Below are positions 3,099 to 25,941 of a DNA stretch of 32,272 nt, in pieces. Where the stretch lies: positions 1 through 32,272 of the IMG/VR virus record IMGVR_UViG_2778261667_000010; one strand, written 5' to 3'. The stretch is from a virus (taxonomy: Duplodnaviria > Heunggongvirae > Uroviricota > Caudoviricetes). Position 1 is the first letter of the stretch. Each line of letters opens with the position of its first letter. The notes beneath the pieces were generated by a model. It did no database searches. It was not told the DNA's origin and was given only the letters and a program-made list of their open reading frames with translations. The position numbers and the translations under genes were made by a program.

Positions 3099-3577
3099 TA
3101 TCCCGCCCCCGTCATACCCGTGAATTTAGTCGCCATACTGCCAGCCTTACCGATGAGCGACTCCGCCTGTTTACCGATATCGCCATAAAGCGCGGCCAGT
3201 GATTCATCAACGCGGGTGAGCGACAGCGTAAAATCAATTTTCCGGGGTGTGCCGTCTGCAAAGAAAATACTCCCTGTTTCACTCACCTTGCTGATGACAT
3301 ACATGCCGTAAATCATGCCAGTGCCATCCAGCAACGGCCACGCCCGGCCTTCATCTGCCATCAGCCTGAGCGTGGTCATCGTCAGCTTTCCGCCGGTCAG
3401 TTCGGGATAAAGCACACCGGCAAGCGTCATGTTTTCCTCGCCAACACCGAGAAACTGGTAGGCATCCCGTTTACCGATACGGGAATTTGACGGCCAGCGA
3501 TAATCTGATTCACGCTGCATGGTCTGGTGTGGCAGCGTCTGGCGCATAAAAACAAACATACCTAACGCGAGCATCAT
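3098..3577 (-). CDS. U: tail protein gpU (159 aa)
   Basis: Length and synteny match P2 gpU; ATG confirmed at 3575-3577. Confidence 0.9.
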   Translation of the reverse strand: MMLALGMFVFMRQTLPHQTMQRESDYRWPSNSRIGKRDAYQFLGVGEENMTLAGVLYPELTGGKLTMTTLRLMADEGRAWPLLDGTGMIYGMYVISKVSETGSIFFADGTPRKIDFTLSLTRVDESLAALYGDIGKQAESLIGKAGSMATKFTGMTGAG

Positions 3578-3591
3578 TTTTCGTCACCTCC

Positions 3592-6039
3592 TTAACCGTC
3601 ATGCATCATGCTGGCACGGGCGCGCGCACGTTTGTCCCGCTCGTATTTTTCGAGCGCATCCTGTAACTGGCGGTCGAGCTGTGTCCCCGGCGCAGTACCA
3701 CCCGTCAGGCTGATGTGATATTCGTTTTTACTCTGGTCTACATAAGAGCGGCCAGCCGGTGCCGTGACCGGCTGATAAGCCTGATAACCTGCATAAGAGC
3801 TGGTCGCCGGAATATAACCACCGCTGCCATACGTGGCGGCTTGAGTTCTGGCGGCGGTCTGGTCAAGTGTGTCTGACTCTTTGTTGATGACACCGAGTTT
3901 TTCCAGTACCCAGTCAATACCACTGCGCAGTTTGTTGAACGCATTAAGCGGCAGCATCAGCGCGTCAGCCAGTGCCTGCCCGAACATGACGCCCGTGTCA
4001 CGGCAACGGTTCAGGGTGTCCTGGGTGGCTTTGACCGGGGCAATCAGGTTTTTAAACCACTGCCACGCGGCCTGTAACTTTTCACCCAGCCAGTCAAACA
4101 CCGGCTTAAGTGGCGTGAACAGTTCCCCCACCGGCGCAAATGCCGCTTTCAGCCCTTCCACCACACCGCCAAAAAATGCGCTGACAGGCTCCCAGTATTT
4201 ACGGATAAGTAACGCCCCGGCGACAATGGCGGCCACCACGGCCACTACCGGCCAGCTAATCGCCCCGATGGCCGTCATAACGGCACTGCCAACCGTCGTG
4301 AAGATTGCCCCCATTGCGCCTGCTGCTGCGATAATGGCATTGATGCCAGTGATAACCGGCCAGGCTACAAGACCAATTGCACCGATGATGCCAATCAGCG
4401 CCAGCGCGCCACCGGCAATGATGCCAATGGTTGACGCCAGTGATTTGTTTTTCTGTATCCAGCCGTCGAGTTTTAACACATACTTTGTGGCCGTCTGTGT
4501 GAGCTTACGCAGTGCGCCTTCCTGCTGGTCAAACAGGTCTGTCCCTACCGCCTCATAAGCGGACTGAAACTCCTTAAAGTCACCGCCGAGGTTATCCTGC
4601 ATGATATTTACCAGCTCGGCGGTCTTCCCGTCTGAGGCTTTAAACGCAGCAGTCAGTTTGTCCAGCTTTCCGGTTGAGGCGGCAGTCATCAGCACGGCGG
4701 CGGCTGAGCTGGCCTCCTCCCCGAAAATAGTTTTCATGTATTCAGCCTGCTGGGCAGTACCGAGCCGGTTTTTCTCAAAACTGGCCTGCATTTCTTTCAG
4801 AATGGTAAATATTGGTCGGGTATTCCCCTTACTGTCTGAGGTTTTCACGCCAAGCTCTTTGAGTGCATCCCATGCTTTTCCCGTTGGTGCCTGCAGGCGA
4901 CTTAACACGGCACGGCTTCCCGTCCCCGCCATTGAGCCTGTGATTTTTGCATCATGCAGCGCCCCGACCATTGCGGCGGTTTCTTCAATGCTGACACCGG
5001 CATTTTTTGCCACAGGTGCGGCATAGGTCAGCGCATCGCTCATGCCGTCAAAATCGGCGGCGGTTTTGTTCATCGTCATGGAGAGAACATCCCCGATATG
5101 AGCGACCTTATCGTTTGAAAGCTGAAAGGCGGATTTCATCCCCATCAGCAGGGCGGCGTTTTCTTCCATCGTGCGGCGGTTCGCCAGCGCCATGTTCAGC
5201 GTGACCGGCGTTGCCGCCTGAATGGCATCAACATCCCCACCCGCTTTCGCGATGATTATCTGTGCACCGGCCGCATCATCCGCCGAGGCGGCGGTATTGT
5301 CGCCGAGCTGGCGCGCCTGTTTGCGTAGTGCGGTCATTTCGGCGGAGTCTTTTGCCACTCCGAGCACGGCCTGCAATTCTGAGTTTTTCTGCGCAAACTC
5401 ATAACCGGGCATCAGCAGCTTAACACCGGCCATCGTTCCCGCAGCAGCAATCCCCACACCGGCAGCGCCCACTGAGGCCATATTTCCGGCCAGCTCCTTT
5501 CCTGCCTGATAACGCTGTTTCACTGCGTTAAGTTTTGCCTGTTGCGCACTGACACGCGCCAGCGCGTCACGCTGCCGGTTAAGCTGTGCGGTGGTTTCAC
5601 TGATACGGTTTTTCAGCCCCTGCTCATCATGTGCAAGATTGCGGGTATTAATTCCCACAGCGGCCAGTTCCCGCTGCTGGCGTTTAACGGAATCCGTCAG
5701 GCGGTTATATTTCGCCTGTAAGTCCTCCGCCGCACGCTTTGCGGATTCCAGCACTTTCGCCTGAGCACGGGTCGGACGTTCAGTGTTTTTAAACTGTGTG
5801 GCAAGGGCTTCGGCCTCCTGCCGTGCCTTTTCAAGTGCATGACCAGTCACGGCGAGCTGTGCGCTGGTCTTGCGAAATCCCTCAATACGGGATGCCTGAC
5901 CGTTCAGCTCGCGCAGTGATTTTTGTGTTTCCCGGATATCCCCCGACAGCGACTTGCTCGCTGTGCGGATGGATTTAAACGGGCGGGATGCCTGGTCAAC
6001 AGCCCTGAGCAATACCTGTAATTTTACATTGTTACTCAT
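3592..6039 (-). CDS. T: tail tape measure protein gpT (815 aa)
   Basis: 815 aa, Ala/Gly-rich with hydrophobic central segment; position between E/E' and U. Confidence 0.9.
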   Translation of the reverse strand: MSNNVKLQVLLRAVDQASRPFKSIRTASKSLSGDIRETQKSLRELNGQASRIEGFRKTSAQLAVTGHALEKARQEAEALATQFKNTERPTRAQAKVLESAKRAAEDLQAKYNRLTDSVKRQQRELAAVGINTRNLAHDEQGLKNRISETTAQLNRQRDALARVSAQQAKLNAVKQRYQAGKELAGNMASVGAAGVGIAAAGTMAGVKLLMPGYEFAQKNSELQAVLGVAKDSAEMTALRKQARQLGDNTAASADDAAGAQIIIAKAGGDVDAIQAATPVTLNMALANRRTMEENAALLMGMKSAFQLSNDKVAHIGDVLSMTMNKTAADFDGMSDALTYAAPVAKNAGVSIEETAAMVGALHDAKITGSMAGTGSRAVLSRLQAPTGKAWDALKELGVKTSDSKGNTRPIFTILKEMQASFEKNRLGTAQQAEYMKTIFGEEASSAAAVLMTAASTGKLDKLTAAFKASDGKTAELVNIMQDNLGGDFKEFQSAYEAVGTDLFDQQEGALRKLTQTATKYVLKLDGWIQKNKSLASTIGIIAGGALALIGIIGAIGLVAWPVITGINAIIAAAGAMGAIFTTVGSAVMTAIGAISWPVVAVVAAIVAGALLIRKYWEPVSAFFGGVVEGLKAAFAPVGELFTPLKPVFDWLGEKLQAAWQWFKNLIAPVKATQDTLNRCRDTGVMFGQALADALMLPLNAFNKLRSGIDWVLEKLGVINKESDTLDQTAARTQAATYGSGGYIPATSSYAGYQAYQPVTAPAGRSYVDQSKNEYHISLTGGTAPGTQLDRQLQDALEKYERDKRARARASMMHDG

Positions 6040-6459
6040 TCGTGTTTCCGCTTCGCCGGAGCGCCTTTTCGCGCCATGTGATGAGTTCGGTCAGGCTCAT
6101 GGGATACAGTTCTGATGGCGGCCAGTGAAATATCACTGCCACATCCGCCATCAGGTCATCGACCGAGAGATTTTTCGGGAACGTCACTGCACCGAGTTCG
6201 GCGACAAAAAACCGACCACCTTACCGGCCAGCGCCACAAGGTCAGGCAGTTCCAGCGCGGCAACTTCCTGCTCGGTCAGCATCGGTGCCGTCATGCGCGG
6301 CAGCACCTTAATCAGTGCATCGACTTCGGAGTTCGCGACCGCAGCCAGACTGACACCGCGCAGCGTCCCGGCATTGGGCTTCATCAGCGTGACCTGTTCG
6401 ATGACCTGCTCACCACGCTTGACCGGATTGTCCAGGGTAATCACATTTTCTTTGTTCAT
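6032..6459 (-). CDS. E+E': gpE+E' chaperone made by programmed -1 ribosomal frameshift
   Basis: Slippery T TTT TTG at 6205-6211 (minus strand). Hand translation of the -1 frame from 6205 gives an open extension VAELGAVTFPKNLSVDDLMADVAVIFHWPP...NTNE ending at TAA 6034-6032, overlapping the T start. Confidence 0.8.
6184..6459 (-). CDS. E: tail assembly chaperone gpE (91 aa)
   Basis: 91-aa ORF upstream of T; ends ...GFLSPNSVQ and carries slippery heptamer TTTTTTG near its 3' end. Confidence 0.9.
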   Translation of the reverse strand: MNKENVITLDNPVKRGEQVIEQVTLMKPNAGTLRGVSLAAVANSEVDALIKVLPRMTAPMLTEQEVAALELPDLVALAGKVVGFLSPNSVQ

Positions 6460-8237: not shown

Positions 8238-8330
8238 CCGTTTAACTCCGTGGTTAATGGGTGAGTGGTATTTTCAGTTGTACAGGGCGTGAGACGCTAT
8301 TTGTCCTGACTGGTCAGGGGATGAAACAAC
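8238..8330 (-). promoter_or_regulatory. expected Ogr-dependent late promoter region (PF) upstream of FI
   Basis: Position only: the FI-FII-E-T-U-D operon starts here in P2; contains inverted repeat CTGAC-TG-GTCAG; exact -10 and activator site not resolved. Confidence 0.35.
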
Positions 8331-8361
8331 AGATAAAGAAAAGGCGGGCAATCCGCCCGCC
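8331..8361 (-). terminator. intrinsic terminator downstream of G
   Basis: Stem GGCGGGC/GCCCGCC (8343-8361) with loop AATCC; minus strand reads hairpin then TTTTCTTTAT. Confidence 0.6.
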
Positions 8362-8366
8362 TGTAT

Positions 8367-8897
8367 TTATTGTGGTAGTTCCGGCCATTCAGGATTTGCA
8401 GGATCCACACGACTGACCAGAACGCTGTAGCGTTCCCATGCCTCCAGTCGGCTGCGCTCCTCATCTGTTGCCATATTCAGCCTGACCGCACGCTCCAGCG
8501 GCTGAATCAATGCCTCAGCTTCTGCAAGCAAGGTTGACTTTCGGACTTCGGCTTGCTGCTGCCGTTCTGCATCCGTATATACACGTTTAATTACAGTGTC
8601 ATCTTTGAACATCCAGTTACCTGAAATATCAGCGCGACGGTTGGCGGTTATATTCGGTAACTCAACAACACTCAAGCCATCAGGGTTGAGCATTGACACA
8701 TCTTTCTCAATGCAACGAATAATACCGTTCTCGTCGTAGGCCATTTTTAAAGTGTCTGGCTGGAAATTCTTTTGTTCCTCATACCAGTTTTTACCATCAT
8801 CTGACCATAGCCAGACAATATTAAATCGTTTGGTTAATTCATATTGTTCAATAGTTTTTGGATTCCCTGCCTTAATATTTTTTAAATGCATCATCAT
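8367..8897 (-). CDS. G: tail fibre assembly chaperone gpG (about 175 aa)
   Basis: Conserved C-terminus ...[41 protein letters not shown]; three tandem ATG codons at 8889-8897, so the exact start is uncertain; TAATG overlap with the H stop. Confidence 0.85.
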
Positions 8898-11419
8898 TAA
8901 ATACTCCCTGCGTTATACCATGTGCCATTAATACAATACTGAACAGGTCTTGCCTGCGCGATATCAATTAATTCATCAGTATTACTATTGACAACACCAG
9001 TAAGAACATGCCCTGACCTGTCATGCCAGCCAGTACCATTCCACGTTGGAAGGGATGACAAACCACCTAAGCGAATACCTGTAATAAAACGTGAATTACA
9101 TTCCGCCTTGGTATAAGCGCCAATATCACCTGGCGATGGTTTATGAGCTGTCGTATAAATTTGCGCCCATCCAGACCATTGAGCATCATCTGTATCCCGC
9201 CTTGAACGGATATATGCTGGCGCGTAACCTCCACTGGTGCCGCTCCAGCCGATAAGTAATTCACCTTCTCCAACTGCGGACACCCCCGTAAGATGAAGCA
9301 CATTGCCATAGGCGTAAGGGTAGCCATTGTTATATGCCTCATACATCTGAATACCAGGCGTCCCCTTTGCACTCCCGCTTAATGCTGTGACGCGATTCCG
9401 GGATACCAGCGTATTAATATTTATATCGCCGGTGCCATCAAATTTGACACTATTAATATTTCGTGCCGTTTTCAGCTTTGTAGCTGTAGCAGCATTGCCG
9501 GACAGTTCGCCTGAAAGACCGGCGCTGAAGGTTTGTTTCGCCGCCCATGTCTGAGCTTCGTCGATAATTGGCACACGTCTTGTCGTGATCGTGCGGCTTC
9601 CCGGATTTCCTGAAATACGCACCATAAAAAAGCGGTAGTTCGCTTTACTTACAGTGCTGCGCCACACATGCATTGAGCGCCCCGTACCGGAATCATCACT
9701 CGGACCGACTGAGATGTTTATCAGGTTGCCATCAATGACGCCCCAGTCCATACCGTCGGGAATATTGGCCATGTTATCAAGCCGAACGGTTATCAGACTA
9801 CCCGGCACAAAGTCGTAGGTCTGCCAGTCCAGACTGGATAATTTTGCCACTGCGCCACCGATGCCCAGATTCAGGGGAAGTGAATACGAGGTGTAGACTT
9901 CCCGCCATTCGCTCCACGAACTGCCGGTATAGACGCGCTCAAACGTGCGACCTTTCGTTGTCGTTCCTGTCCCTGTAGTGGTATAGCGTTGCAATACAGC
10001 AACGTAATCAAAACGTCTGATAACCTCTAACACCCCTAGTAGTGTTGCACCAGATGAATCCAGCAATGGACCATTGGTTGCTTTACCCGTCACACTGTAA
10101 ATACCAGGGTCGGTTAGATCATTCAAATCACCGTCATAAAAGCTGCTTGCAGTCTGGCTGCCGATTCTCAGCCACGGTTCCCACTGTGGGTTTGATGCAT
10201 CCCAGTTTGCAGCAAGGCAGCGGACATACATGTTCCCACGGCGAGTGGTATAACGCTGGGTATAACTGAATCCACCACCTTTCATAACTTCAAGCACTCC
10301 CTGCGCGTAACTACCAGCTTCGGGATAGTGCAACGCAAGAGAAGCTAACGTACTGGAACTGTTTCTCCATGTACCCAGGTTATCCTCCCCGGCCAGAAAA
10401 TCGAGATCCATACTGTCATCCAGCGTTCTGGCCGTCCCCTGAACGTTACGCCATACGCTCCACGGACCATCTTTGCCGTTCCATTTAGCCGTCAGGTGGC
10501 GAATATAAGTATTTCCATTGCGAACAGTGTAACGCTGTGTTCCGTTAAAATTTCCTGCTGCAAATACTTCCAGGACACCAACGGCATTCTCTTCCGGGAA
10601 GTGTTTGGCTATCTGTGCATTAGTCGAAGTGCCTTTTGACCATGTACCCAGATAAGCTTTAACGGGACCAAATGTATTCAGATCAGCATCAACCGGCATT
10701 TCGCCGTTGTTTTTCATAAACGTCAGGCTGGTAACGCCAACATTGTCCAGAAAAGCGTCCTTATCTGGAATATCGCCACCGTTCTGGTCTTTCTGCAGAC
10801 GTTTCTCAGCATTGTCATAGGCTGCTTTTACTGCCTTTGGCGTTGCAGCCTGCTTTTCACTGGTGCTGTTTGTTGCACTGCTTAACTGAGTAAAACCTTT
10901 CTCTGTCAGCGTGGCGTCAGGATGGCGGCGGGACTGCTCATGCTCTGCGATTTTGTCATCGACGTAATCCTGCGTCGCCATCACCGTGCTGGCATCAATA
11001 CTCAGCTCAACGGACGCCACGTTGCTGAGAATAATCACCATGCAGCAGGTCTGCGCACGTCCGGAGCCTTCAGCCAGTTCTGGCTTATAGCTTTCTGCCA
11101 TGTTGGATACCGCAATCAGTGTTCCGGCATCGTCATACAAACCAAGCTCACGCATCCAGAAGCCGCCCACTTCGGGCGGTACAACCAGTTCAGCCACGAT
11201 ATAGTTTTTATTCTTGTTATCCACGCTGACTTTATTCAGAGCGTGACGCCAGACCTCATGCACCAGTTTCGTCTGACCGGCATCCGGCACCGGCAATTTG
11301 CCATTACCGTCACCCACGGCCATTGCAGACAGGTTTACTTTTTTCCCGCCGGGGACAGTGGCGGCAGCCAGCTTTGCGGCTCCGGCAGTAGTGATAACGG
11401 TTTTAAATTTCGTGCTCAT
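8897..11419 (-). CDS. H: tail fibre protein gpH, elongated mosaic variant (840 aa)
   Basis: N-terminal 200 aa P2 H-like ([25 protein letters not shown]...); central three-fold repeat and divergent C-terminal receptor-binding region; ATG at 11417-11419. Confidence 0.9.
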
Positions 11420-23457: not shown

Positions 23458-25941
23458 ATGTCTGGTTTTTTCCTTGATTTAACCAAGCTTTCGCCCAGTG
23501 TAAATAGCGACACAGCGATTCCACCGCGAGATATATTTACAGCTCTACCGAGCAAAGACACCAAATTTCAATACCCTCGAGATGTGCAATCAGAGGTCTG
23601 GGAAAAATGGTATGAAGCAAGGAGAAGCCCAACCAATGTAATAAAAATGAATACCGGAAGCGGTAAAACTTCAGTTGGGTTAATCATTCTTAAAAGCTGT
23701 ATAAATGAAGGAGAAGGTCCCGCTGTATATGTTGTTCCTGACAACTATCTAGTTGAGCAAGTGGTTTTGGAGGCTAATCAACTTGGTATACCTGTAACTC
23801 AAGATGAGAGGTCCCCCAAATTTATTGCAGGTAAAGAAATTTTAGTTACAAATATATTCAAAGTGGTTAATGGACGTTCTGCATTTGGCGTTGGAGATGA
23901 TGGACAAAAAATACCAATAGGTTCTATAATAATTGACGATGCTCACGCTTGCCTTTCTTCAATTGAAGAACAATTCTCCATTAGCATTCAAAAAAATAAC
24001 CCTGCCTATGATAAATTATTCAGAATTTTTGAAAATTCACTAATGACACAAGCTGGTGCAAAAACACTAGAGATAAAATCCGGCGATAGAAATGCTTATG
24101 TGAGAGTTCCATTTTGGAAATGGCAAGAAAGCATAAATGATATAATGACAATCTTGTTAGAAAATAAAGACCATGATGACTTGAGTTTCAAATGGCCATT
24201 AATAAAAGACAATCTAATATTATCGAAATGCGTTGTAAGTGCTTCCAAAATAGAGATATCACCTCATTGCATACCAATCCAAATGATCCCAAGCCTATCA
24301 AACGCAAGAAGAAAAATATTCATGACAGCTACTCTTGTCGATGAATCCATTCTAGCGAGCCACTTCGGAATAACGGATGAATCACTCTCTAATCCGATAA
24401 CACCAAAAACAATTGGTGATATTGGTGATAGAATGATACTAATGCCTCAGGTTATAAACCCTAGTCTTTCTGATGTAGATATCAAAGCTATGTGCAAGGA
24501 GATATCCTCCAAACATAATGTTGTTGTAATTGTACCATCCGATTACAGAACTAGATTTTGGCAAGATGTTGCAGACAGAATATTAGATAAAAATACAATT
24601 TATCAAGGTGTACAAGAATTAAGGACACAACATGTTGGCTTAGTAGTCCTAGTTAATAGATATGATGGTATTGATTTACCAAATACCGCATGTCGTCTAT
24701 TAGTAATAGATGGACTTCCTGACGTTCGTAGACTAATAGATAAAGTCTCACAAAGCTTATTGCTTGGAAGCGAAAAAACCAAAGATGAAATTATCCAGAA
24801 AATTGAACAAGGAATGGGGCGAGGAGTGAGATCAAGCGACGACTTCTGCGGAGTGATCTTACTTGGCAAAGCATTAAATGGCGCTGTTTTCCTTGGCTCC
24901 TCCTTAGAAAGGTTTTCTCCAGCAACGAAAGCACAAATTCAACTTTCACAGCAATTGGTATCGATACTGCCGGATACAACTATTGATTCAATCAAAGGTG
25001 CTCTTGATTATTGTCTGTTACGCAATTCTGACTGGGTCTCAAAAAGCAAAGGTATATTGACTGGCTTAACATTGGAAAATAAGCAGATTGACCAGCATAC
25101 TATAAACAAAAGATTGGCATATGACTTCGCATCACGAAATATGTTTCAACAAGCCGCTTTAACTCTAAAAAATGATAGTAGTACAGCTGACAAAGTTTAT
25201 AAGGGTTATCTAAAAGAACATGCTGCGGAATATGTAAACTTATATGACAAATCTGAAGCTCAGATATTGCTTCAGTCTGCATCAAACGATAACTATCGGG
25301 TATTAAAACCACTAATCGGCGTAACATATAATAGACTTAATGGTGCGGCACTTGAACAGGCCAGGGAATGTAGCTCCTATCTCAGAAGTAATTTTGAATC
25401 GGCGAATCAAGTCGTTGTGCATACTAATTCAATAATAGAAAACCTTATTTTCTCCGAGGGCACATCGAATCCCTTCGAAGATGCTATCGAAAAAGTTGCA
25501 TATTTGATCGGTTTTCGTAGCCAACGGCCAGAAAATGATACAGGTAAAGGACCTGACAATTTATGGGCAATGGGAGAAAACAATTATCTAGTAATTGAAT
25601 GCAAAAATGGAGCAACCGCAGAAAGAATAAGTAAGCATGACTGCAATCAGTTAAATGGGTCGGGTGCATGGTTCAGAAACATGTATGATCAAACTGCTAC
25701 CGCCACACCTATAATGATACATCACTCTAACATGCCTGAATATGCCGCAACACTAAACGAAGGGTCTCGAATAATGACCATAAATGATCTTGAACGTTTT
25801 AAAGCATCTATCCTCAGTTTTATCACGGCCATTTGTACAAGTGATAAACGACACGATGAGATATTTATAAGAGAACAATTGATCACATGTAAATTACGTG
25901 CATCAGACATAGTTGAAACCTATACGCGAAACCCTCGTTAA
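23458..25941 (+). CDS. cargo protein (827 aa): SF2 helicase-like ATPase with C-terminal PD-(D/E)xK-like nuclease motif; candidate anti-phage defence protein
   Basis: ATG 23458 with RBS AGAGGA 7 nt upstream; visibly AT-rich codon usage unlike flanking phage genes. Motif I NTGSGKT (23653-23670), motif II DDAH (23935-23946), motif V-like YDGIDLP, motif VI QGMGRGVR (24808-24831); C-terminal GPD (D700, 25555-25557) ... IECK (E714/K716, 25597-25605). Confidence 0.85.
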   Translation: MSGFFLDLTKLSPSVNSDTAIPPRDIFTALPSKDTKFQYPRDVQSEVWEKWYEARRSPTNVIKMNTGSGKTSVGLIILKSCINEGEGPAVYVVPDNYLVEQVVLEANQLGIPVTQDERSPKFIAGKEILVTNIFKVVNGRSAFGVGDDGQKIPIGSIIIDDAHACLSSIEEQFSISIQKNNPAYDKLFRIFENSLMTQAGAKTLEIKSGDRNAYVRVPFWKWQESINDIMTILLENKDHDDLSFKWPLIKDNLILSKCVVSASKIEISPHCIPIQMIPSLSNARRKIFMTATLVDESILASHFGITDESLSNPITPKTIGDIGDRMILMPQVINPSLSDVDIKAMCKEISSKHNVVVIVPSDYRTRFWQDVADRILDKNTIYQGVQELRTQHVGLVVLVNRYDGIDLPNTACRLLVIDGLPDVRRLIDKVSQSLLLGSEKTKDEIIQKIEQGMGRGVRSSDDFCGVILLGKALNGAVFLGSSLERFSPATKAQIQLSQQLVSILPDTTIDSIKGALDYCLLRNSDWVSKSKGILTGLTLENKQIDQHTINKRLAYDFASRNMFQQAALTLKNDSSTADKVYKGYLKEHAAEYVNLYDKSEAQILLQSASNDNYRVLKPLIGVTYNRLNGAALEQARECSSYLRSNFESANQVVVHTNSIIENLIFSEGTSNPFEDAIEKVAYLIGFRSQRPENDTGKGPDNLWAMGENNYLVIECKNGATAERISKHDCNQLNGSGAWFRNMYDQTATATPIMIHHSNMPEYAATLNEGSRIMTINDLERFKASILSFITAICTSDKRHDEIFIREQLITCKLRASDIVETYTRNPR

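Follow-up and report, generated by a model that had tools for sequence, protein, structure and literature searches.

Mosaic tail fibre gene H of a P2-like prophage with three predicted knob domains and a Mu S'-type tip, a probable recombinant of known prophage alleles

Results

The window, that is the whole 32,272-nt stretch of viral DNA analysed, contains a P2-like prophage in which the genes around the tail fibre gene H were arranged in the order J-I-H-G-FI, as in P2, and the genes next to H matched Tail_P2_I, Baseplate_J and Caudo_TAP (features in Table 1). This order and an N-terminal Phage_tail_fib domain mark H as a P2 gpH-type fibre. The N-terminal domain shared 99% aa identity with every Peduovirus relative compared and the following fibre repeat segment was 60% identical to residues 111-172 of Mu S, while nucleotide divergence of H from its relatives started at codons 181-240.

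Table 1. Features of the H-G locus, with positions in the window.
Feature	Residues or codons	Position	Strand	Evidence
Tail fibre gene H	840 aa	8897..11419	minus	ORF; Pfam PF12571 and PF03406; PHROG tail fibre families
N-terminal baseplate-attachment domain (Phage_tail_fib, PF12571)	1-165	10925..11419	minus	Pfam E 3e-56
Phage_fiber_2 repeat segment, left edge of variable centre	166-235	10715..10924	minus	PF03406 E 2e-21
Knob 1 (repeat copy 1)	236-330	10430..10714	minus	Predicted six-strand beta module; knob-fold matches
Knob 2	331-420	10160..10429	minus	47% identity to knob 1, E 2e-22; same predicted fold
Knob 3 (diverged copy)	421-515	9875..10159	minus	HMM E 1.5e-4; hhalign E 3e-6 to knob 1; same predicted strand order
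Recombination crossover, end of knob 3	codons 515-519	9863..9877	minus	Last PEC41 mismatch run ends at codon 515; first 5-1 mismatch at codon 519
D4 (label used here), conserved beta-rich domain	516-620	9560..9874	minus	96-100% aa identity to PEC41, 5-1, P22H1, 569R9 and p98192 fibre
Linker with conserved 22-residue box, second exchange point	621-668	9416..9559	minus	5-1 H identity ends at residue 666
D5 (label used here), common to P1-like and other fibres	669-745	9185..9415	minus	53-71% identity to p98192 fibre; PHROG families 6722, 3299, 454
Receptor-binding tip of Mu/P1 S' type	746-840	8900..9184	minus	Similarity to Mu S', PDB 8ju3
G (tail fibre assembly protein), N-terminal fibre-binding domain, U'-like	1-120	8538..8897	minus	Caudo_TAP match
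G, C-terminal helical domain, Mu U / P2 G type	121-176	8367..8537	minus	34/38 diagnostic sites U/P2-G type, 0/38 U'-type

The preliminary description of this DNA had pointed to positions 9890-10687, which correspond to H residues 245-510, and had called H an elongated mosaic with a P2-like start. Both the length and the mosaic character were borne out: H is 171 aa longer than the 669-aa P2 H (from NC_001895), and a P2-like N-terminus, with 84% identity between residues 1-204 of the two proteins, is joined to a different centre. Protein alignment gave no match for H 205-743 anywhere in P2 H, and H 744-840 aligned with P2 H 572-669 at no more than 29% identity, so that the two proteins are not collinear over their full length. 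When P2 H was scanned with the knob-module profile, zero copies of the knob module of this subfamily were found. As P2 H lacks the module and has an unrelated centre, the centre of H is a replacement and not an insertion. The 669-aa P2 H is itself one architecture among many H architectures.

The motifs by which three internal copies had been recognised lie exactly where they had been reported, GVLEV at residues 281, 374 and 462 and QRYT at residues 295, 388 and 477, each pair being followed by tryptophans (313/320/323, 406/413/416 and 502/505), and the spacing of GVLEV, QRYT and W..W along H followed a period of 88-93 residues. The copies were all significantly similar to one another, with knob 3 distant. 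For knobs 1 and 2 the BLASTP identity extended over 72 aa and the hhalign E value was 3e-43. Knob 3 was far more diverged, with about 30% identity and BLASTP E values of 0.003-0.2 to the other copies; an HMM built from the knob 1 and knob 2 copies only found residues 461-508, none of 2000 shuffled knob 3 sequences reached the real HMM score, and profile-profile comparison with knob 1 (probability 88%) and with knob 2 (E 1e-4) agreed. The likeness was limited to the C-terminal half of the module, from GVLEV to W..W, and knob 3 is of marginal similarity at the sequence level. Self-BLASTP of the whole H returned the identity hit alone, and the repeats emerged only from segment-wise comparison. 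A fourth copy around residues 660-760 was considered but is not claimed, the match being limited to the final ~20 positions of the profile (E values between 4e-4 and 0.045, hhalign probabilities of 6-24%).

No tandem repeat was visible in H at the DNA level, and the duplication is therefore old. The same triplet was found collinear in H of L-413C, 569R9, P22H1 and PEC41, with three HMM matches at the same positions in each of the first three, in T6-type gp37 (the whole 280-aa triplet, 100% coverage, 55-60% identity) and in a P1-like plasmid fibre (p98192, 90% identity). Matches to the module profile came from 233 clusters, whose proteins hold 1-6 copies in tandem. A scan for relatives in the GTDB species-representative genomes gave just three distant loci (Rahnella, Pseudomonas and Aeromonas) and was uninformative. 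A recent internal tandem duplication in the present lineage, which would have lengthened a P2-type H so that the repeats are the elongation itself, would agree with the excess length over P2 H and with the regular motif period. Such an event is scarcely credible and was rejected, because identity among the copies is as low as 47% and ~30%, no DNA repeat exists, and the order R1-R2-R3 is kept in the orthologous copies of L-413C, T6-type gp37 and P1-like fibres; moreover, P2 H has no module from which to start, its centre being unrelated, and H of the closest relatives is even longer (872-919 aa). The knob triplet is old, widespread, conserved and not peculiar to the present phage. The suggestion that the repeats are an elongation or insertion special to this phage was not supported, since the triplet recurs collinearly in H of L-413C, P22H1 and 569R9 (911-919 aa, all longer), in T6-type gp37 and in the P1-like plasmid fibre.

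Searches of Pfam, NCBIfam and PDB sequences returned nothing on H residues 236-515, while homologues with 71-99% identity are named 'pyocin knob domain-containing protein' at NCBI. In the AF2 monomer model of residues 224-530 (pLDDT 76.9), the repeat region formed three like modules of six strands each with identical strand order. The predicted modules have the properties by which knob domains were defined by Buth et al. 2018, namely a length of ~80-90 aa and one antiparallel sheet of five or six strands with loops, and the model also resembles pyocin Knob1 and Knob2. Foldseek placed two pyocin fibres first, R1 (6cl5, E 3.5e-6) and R2 (6cl6, E 9e-6); as the domains of the model are oriented arbitrarily relative to each other, the global TM-scores were low (0.2-0.35). 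The recognised homologues of the pyocin knobs, which the model likewise resembles, are phi11 gp45, phage K gp144, T4 gp34 and AS12 gp42. The three repeats are very probably knob domains, folded like Knob1 and Knob2 in the fibres of R-type pyocins, within a fibre of recombinant origin. Their trimeric packing is assumed by analogy; loop residues varied more than strand residues (p 0.002), which is compatible with a trimer with exposed loops, yet is expected of any folded domain.

Downstream of the knobs, an AF2 monomer prediction for residues 505-840 reached a pLDDT of just 38.6, too low for use. The linker box was repeated several times in the p98192 fibre, and nucleotide identity of H to P22H1 stopped at about codon 663. 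D5 is possibly knob-like, as its last ~20 residues, and only these, matched the knob profile (E 4e-4).

Two E. coli prophages together account for H. Compared with the prophage of strain 5-1, codons ~200-518 were near-identical and residues 1-666 were 98% identical; compared with the PEC41 prophage, the stretch from codon 516 to the end of G was identical, with 89% identity for the full-length H. A crossover is thereby placed at the end of knob 3, and a second exchange point lies at a 10-residue box at about residues 640-668. H appears to be a clean recombinant of alleles already known from E. coli prophages. An assembly artefact, in which reads of two different P2-like prophages from one genome or one sample were joined, would account for several observations: an exact-match scan of the GTDB species-representative genomes did not find the exact 57-nt junction, the best match of the 701-nt segment spanning it in 5,426 complete E. 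coli genomes was 96.9%, and several P2-like prophages are common in E. coli genomes, the best-matching ones holding up to 4 matching places per record. We consider this most improbable, as the reading frame of H is intact, the crossover lies in a highly similar stretch at a domain boundary, as real homologous recombination would give, and the rest of the prophage runs on without a break into both flanks. For the host flank yegQ, too, identity to E. coli does not exceed 95.7%, which indicates that the source lineage is poorly sampled in the collections searched.

The C-terminal domain was indeed distinct, being an S'-like tip of another type than that of P2 H. H 736-840 was 71% identical to residues 225-328 of Mu S' (Sv') (E 2e-47), the tip matched residues 385-488 of PDB 8ju3 (domain i-Evalue 1.3e-44), and the tips of SfMu, P1 Sv', P7 and P88 were 70-73% identical to it. 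A contiguous match of 75% nt identity to Mu S'-U' DNA ran across the tip and G codons 1-117. The proposed co-variation of G with the tip was confirmed, with the refinement that G itself is chimeric, having a U'-like N-domain and a U/P2-G-type C-domain. The U'-likeness of the N-domain is partial: 10 of its 24 diagnostic sites were U'-type, 4 were U-type and 10 unique, and its identity was 76% to U' versus 70% to U. Tfa proteins are reported to bind the fibre with the N-domain and to trimerise with the C-domain (North et al. 2019, as cited in PMC9608196). In the Mu structure it is the N-domain that contacts the tip of the fibre. An invertible segment at the H-G locus was rejected, as the locus has no invertase and no inverted fibre or chaperone ORFs, and the gap from G to FI (the sheath gene) is 129 nt.

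The knobs were 64-79% identical in aa to those of close relatives while the flanks were 96-100% identical, and in otherwise near-identical alleles the nucleotide identity was 53-89% for the knobs versus 97-100% for the flanks. Knob 2 was the most diverged unit in comparison with PEC41 and P22H1 (64% aa, ~53% nt in its first half), and against the p98192 fibre knob 1 was 76% identical and knobs 2 and 3 were 96-99% identical. The knob cassette is a variable unit in its own right that is exchanged independently, which goes beyond what had been proposed for this locus.

Discussion

We propose that H is a trimeric P2-family fibre built of exchangeable domains, in which baseplate attachment domain, fibre repeat, knobs, conserved domain D4, linker with the 10-residue recombination box, the further domain D5 and tip would follow one another within the limits given in Table 1. 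An ancient duplication probably produced the three knobs, and the cassette would then have moved as one among P2-like, P1-like and T-even fibres. The present allele would have arisen by homologous recombination of two extant prophage alleles, one giving the N-terminus and the knobs and the other everything from codon 516 through G, with G inherited along with the tip. The tip would bind LPS core and fix the primary host range, while the beta-sheets of the knobs would form the trimer axis and serve as folding nuclei, and their variable surface loops might make an additional, weaker contact with saccharide by which the fibre is oriented.

Host-range switching by modular exchange had been suggested from the repeats together with the C-terminal domain and G. 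The exchange is directly demonstrable from the crossovers at codons 515-519 and at the 10-residue box; the repeats in themselves are no signature of a recent switch, the triplet being ancient and conserved.

What the knobs do can be argued in two directions. The array may be purely structural, a length spacer with a trimerisation and folding nucleus that has no receptor role, its divergence being neutral hitch-hiking in recombination. The core motifs GVLEV, QRYT and W..W are conserved and lie in predicted strands, the cassette occurs in combination with numerous unrelated tips (Collar, gp37_C, Gp34_trimer with Peptidase_S74, Phage_tail_C_2 and Mu S'), Buth et al. have proposed that knobs have a role in folding, and host range of the P2-like phage P88 maps to the extreme C-terminus, where it is set by the last ~50 residues of H (PMC5285337). 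This reading is a real possibility although we doubt it, since between otherwise near-identical alleles H diverges most in the knobs, far more than in their flanks, single knobs are exchanged independently, as in p98192, and pyocin Knob2 and the K1F beta-prism have been implicated in saccharide binding (PMC12625404 among the sources). In the pyocin fibre, diversity is highest in Knob2, a likely binding site (Buth et al. 2018), and in Pseudomonas phages Knob 2 similarity follows host range (PMC12625404). More speculatively, and on present evidence rather unlikely, the triplet could be an independent second specificity determinant (e.g. for O-antigen or outer-core sugars) that is reassorted apart from tip and chaperone, even knob by knob. 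If so, a P2-like, P1-like or T-even phage would owe its host range to a combinatorial code of knob allele and tip allele, and the present H would be a natural recombinant with a pairing of knob set and tip not found in the collections searched.

H illustrates, with good documentation, a phenomenon that is already known, and its knob domains are of the ordinary kind that occurs in numerous fibres of phages and pyocins. Mosaicism of tail fibres, knob domains and co-inheritance of tip and chaperone are all established, and no biology new in kind is involved. Of practical use are the exact, naturally validated splice points for fibre engineering, namely the end of knob 3 and the 10-residue box. 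In agreement with the modular Tfa model, a Tfa chaperone that pairs U'-like fibre-binding and U/P2-G-type trimerisation domains appears to occur naturally with an S'-type tip, and the knob cassette is flagged as a variable unit distinct from the tip and a candidate determinant of host range.

Among known systems, H is closest to gpH of Yersinia phage L-413C and to P22H1, 569R9, PEC41 and 5-1, with which it shares an N-domain at 99% identity and the order fibre repeat, three knobs, D4. It has the L-413C-type long architecture (N-domain, fibre repeat, three knobs, D4 and ATKL box), and BLASTP was collinear over H 1-770 with L-413C H (65%) and over H 1-768 with 569R9 and P22H1 H (77-78%). The gpH of L-413C has been described as a four-part mosaic relative to P2 H (Garcia et al. 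2008, as cited in PMC7460101). The knob alleles of H differ by 21-56% aa from these L-413C-type relatives, strain 5-1 excepted. The tips of L-413C, P22H1 and 569R9 are longer (~143 aa) and more P2-like, unlike the Mu S'-type tip of H, and nucleotide identity to these three from about codon 661 on was 36-58%; in 5-1 the tip is of Collar/His-x-His type with a 192-aa chaperone.

With the R1 and R2 pyocin fibres (PDB 6CL5, 6CL6 and 6CU2; CDD 'pyocin_knob'), H shares a homologous P2-type N-terminal domain beneath the fibre and tandem beta modules, ~85-90 aa long and built of five or six antiparallel strands, predicted in the case of H, and in both the knobs are the variable part. Unlike these pyocins, H has three knobs instead of two, with sequence identity of only 17-23%, and beyond the knobs come different domains and a tip of the Mu S' type, whereas the pyocins have an iron-containing shaft and a lectin foot. 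The 71% identical tip, with the solved homologue 8JU3, and the chaperone gene immediately downstream with its U'-like N-domain resemble the S' (Sv')-U' cassette of Mu and P1. In contrast to that cassette, and as compared with Mu and P88, the H locus is without invertase, inverted alternative cassette and invertible segment, the C-domain of G is of U/P2-G type, and only the last ~105 residues of S' are common to H. Finally, T6-type gp37, the large distal subunit of the long tail fibre of T-even phages, carries the complete three-knob cassette as H does, but has a gp36-attaching N-terminus, another tip and the chaperones gp38 and gp57A, and is part of a much longer two-part fibre.

Tail fibre locus and genomic setting

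The window is a P2-like (Peduovirus) prophage, whose structural genes share about 96% DNA identity with phages such as P22H1, D8 and 12W and which keeps the J-I-H-G-FI order of P2. The tail fibre gene H and G, encoding its Tfa-type assembly chaperone, are listed with their domains below; the stretch 9890-10687, on which the preliminary description had centred, corresponds to H residues 245-510.

Coordinates of the features in the window and in the H protein
Feature	Window position	Strand	H residues	Product or domain
H	8897-11419	minus		840-aa ORF
G	8367-8897	minus		176 aa, Caudo_TAP
PF12571			1-151	Pfam
PF03406			170-210	Pfam
Copy 1 (knob 1)			236-330	
Copy 2 (knob 2)			331-420	
Copy 3 (knob 3)			421-515	
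D4, domain after knob 3			516-620	
Helicase-like gene	23458-25941	plus		827 aa; ResIII, DEAD, Helicase_C_2

The G ORF starts with three Met codons in a row (MMMHLK, 8889-8897), the first overlapping the stop codon of H by one base; translation probably begins one codon after the longest-ORF start, given that homologues are annotated from the second Met (175 aa). The gap between G and the sheath gene FI is only 129 nt (8238-8366), so the cargo position that holds fun(Z) in P2 is empty here, while this site holds two small ORFs in P22H1 and an IS3 fragment with a 359-aa hypothetical protein in E. coli 5-1. Neither an invertase nor an inverted alternative cassette was found at the H-G locus, FI following directly after this gap.

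At the left end (1-1900), the host gene yegQ (Peptidase_U32) precedes the ogr side of the prophage, which occupies the yegQ/ogrK site; in K-12, a P2 remnant persists at this site. This segment matched nearly all 5,426 complete E. coli genomes, with most records in the 90-95% identity band and a best identity of 95.7% among the listed full-length (100% coverage) matches; two E. coli records outside the matches listed were counted at 99% or more. Because identity to E. coli lies mostly at 90-95%, the host is probably another Escherichia lineage and not E. coli in the strict sense. The helicase-like gene lies between portal gene Q and replication gene A, the variable cargo position of P2 (old/tin region), and its product matched the PADLOC candidate defence family PDC-S28 over the full length (score 1056); P22H1-type phages are without this segment.

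Three tandem modules with a predicted knob fold

The motifs GVLEV (H residues 281, 374 and 462) and QRYT (295, 388 and 477) were located exactly where they had been reported, and Trp residues follow each QRYT (313/320/323, 406/413/416 and 502/505). BLASTP, hhalign and HMM comparisons with shuffled controls established that the three copies resemble each other beyond chance. Copies 1 and 2 share 47% identity over 72 residues (E 2e-22; hhalign E 3e-43). Copy 3 is far more diverged (pairwise BLASTP E 0.003-0.2); an HMM trained on copies 1 and 2 alone, taken from this H and related proteins, nevertheless detected it (461-508, E 1.5e-4), a score reached by 0 of 2000 shuffled copies, and profile-profile comparison gave E 3e-6 against copy 1 and 1e-4 against copy 2. 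Tandem Repeats Finder reported no DNA-level tandem repeat in the region and a direct-repeat scan only imperfect in-register matches of 15-19 nt, so that the duplication is ancient. A 20-residue W-x-x-W match, its sole basis, marks a candidate fourth, very distant knob-like element ending near residue 758.

Pfam found nothing on H beyond the two N-terminal domains tabulated and NCBIfam gave no annotation, while homologues 71-99% identical to H are named 'pyocin knob domain-containing protein' by NCBI. The AlphaFold2 model of residues 224-530 (mean pLDDT 76.9) shows three beta modules of six strands apiece in the same order, with GVLEV, QRYT, the Y-x-R strand and the W-x-x-W strand at equivalent places in each. 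Against solved structures, Foldseek ranked the R1 and R2 pyocin fibres at the top (6cl5, E 3.5e-6; 6cl6, E 9e-6; probability 1.0), and the matches largely coincided with the set of knob homologues given by Buth et al. 2018 (PMC6116203). On this model and fold match, the repeats are read as three tandem Knob domains. In the pyocin knob, five or six antiparallel strands form a sheet that lies buried at the trimer axis, with the loops on the surface (Buth et al. 2018), and by analogy we infer trimeric packing of the H knobs. The monomer model covering residues 516-745 had a pLDDT of 38.6.

A three-copy profile searched against 1.84 billion representatives matched 233 clusters (50% identity). Among the best 148 of these, proteins carried one (40), two (64), three (38), four (4) or six (1) copies, at a modal spacing of 80-100 aa. 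Their C-terminal partners were diverse, including Phage_tail_C_2, Gp34_trimer, Peptidase_S74, gp37_C and Collar. The whole 280-aa triplet occurs in T6-type gp37 of many T-even phages (55-60% identity), in sequenced Peduoviruses (73% or less) and in a fibre of the P1-like E. coli plasmid p98192 (90%).

Exchange points of H

Mosaicism by modular exchange, as proposed earlier, was confirmed by binned nucleotide identity and mismatch maps against Peduovirus relatives. Codons 1-180 are 97-100% identical to all relatives compared, and codons ~200-518 have a nearly identical counterpart in a prophage carried by 13 complete E. coli genomes, e.g. strain 5-1. The knob region is 99.9% identical to the 5-1 prophage, with the first mismatch at codon 519, and only 53-89% identical to that of the PEC41 prophage; from codon 516 to the end of G and beyond, PEC41 differs by few isolated mismatches, a single one of them in H (codon 657). 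These two limits place a crossover at codons 515-519, on sequence grounds exactly the end of knob 3. The exact recombinant junction was not found in species-representative genomes, and the best match to a 701-nt segment across it in complete E. coli genomes was 96.9%, so this allele combination is new to the collections searched.

The 5-1 protein (872 aa, 98% identity over H residues 1-666) switches within a conserved 16-residue linker box, after which it has a Collar/His-x-His tip and a different 192-aa chaperone; identity of H to P22H1 also ends at about codon 663. Residues 181-240 (10700-10879) are 99-100% identical in DNA to P22H1 and only 77-87% to PEC41, 569R9 and L-413C, which indicates that the knob cassette is bounded on its left by a third exchange point.

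Amino acid identity of H domains to related fibres
Domain	Close Peduovirus relatives	L-413C	p98192 fibre
Knob 1	73-76%	46%	76%
Knob 2	64%	56%	99%
Knob 3	76-79%	44%	96%
D4	96-100%	70%	97%

Variation is thus concentrated in the knobs and D4 is strongly conserved, while the p98192 values indicate that single knobs are exchangeable. Variability was higher at predicted loop residues (0.33) than at strand residues (0.23; p 0.002). The fibre of the phage-plasmid p98192 (NZ_CP173593; positions 3420-6281 of its locus L009; 953 aa, annotated hypothetical) matches H residues 226-668 at 90% and then carries about seven GNAATATKL(Q/K)TAR..FDG boxes interleaved with other domains; the presumed recombination linker is strikingly concentrated in this protein.

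Tip and chaperone

H 736-840 shares 71% identity with Mu S' 225-328 and 70-73% with the S'-type tips of SfMu, P1, P7, D108 and P88, and the solved Mu(-) fibre 8JU3 was matched with a domain i-Evalue of 1.3e-44. The PEC41 prophage has an identical G, and identity to the G proteins of P2 and L-413C and to U of Mu is about 75%. Of the sites diagnostic for the Mu chaperones U and U', 10 within residues 1-120 of this G are U'-type, 4 are U-type and 10 are unique, while within residues 121-176 34 of 38 are U-type and 0 are U'-type; a contiguous 75% DNA match to Mu S'-U' covers the H tip together with codons 1-117 of G. Work on Mu Tfa assigns binding of the fibre tip to the N-domain and trimerisation to the conserved helical domain at the C-terminus (North et al. 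2019, as cited in PMC9608196). Taken with this model, the chimeric G combines an N-domain matched to the tip and a generic domain for trimerisation, and the earlier statement that G co-varies with the tip can be narrowed to its N-domain. The 5-1 and p98192 alleles have different tips and correspondingly different chaperones; tip and chaperone are inherited as a block.

Proposed function

By precedent, the fibre would be a homotrimer attached by its PF12571 domain to the gpI/gpJ baseplate wedge, and the S'-type tip, folded and capped by G, would bind the LPS core and set primary host range; the host range of P88, a P2-like phage, has been mapped to the final ~50 H residues (PMC5285337). The knobs would supply trimerisation and folding nuclei and fibre length, and the main rival reading makes them a purely structural spacer. 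Knob2 is the most variable part of the pyocin fibre and probably ligand-binding (Buth et al. 2018); on this model and Pseudomonas phage data (PMC12625404), the variable knob loops of H may also add a second contact with saccharide, of low affinity, by which the fibre is oriented.

Comparison with P2 and L-413C-type fibres

H is longer than P2 H (840 vs 669 aa), and residues 1-204 are 84% identical to P2 H 1-204. The C-terminal domain is distinct (744-840, 29% identity to P2 H 572-669), and no match was found between residues 204 and 744. HMM searches detected no knob in P2 H, Mu S or Mu S', and three copies each, at matching positions, in H of L-413C, 569R9, P22H1 and PEC41. Since P2 H lacks the module and the triplet is collinear in the relatives, the centre of H replaces that of P2 H; the preliminary description was thus right about modular exchange and wrong in taking the repeats for an elongating insertion, the nearest architectural relatives (872-919 aa) being longer than this H. 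H is chiefly of value because it maps, cleanly and from a natural case, where fibres may be spliced in engineering, and because it points to the knob cassette as a separately exchanged unit. Compared with P2 H, L-413C gpH was already known as a mosaic of four parts (Garcia et al. 2008, as cited in PMC7460101), and H is a new allele of this L-413C-type Peduovirus tail fibre, combining tandem pyocin-type knobs, as modelled, with a Mu S'-type tip and a matched chimeric Tfa.
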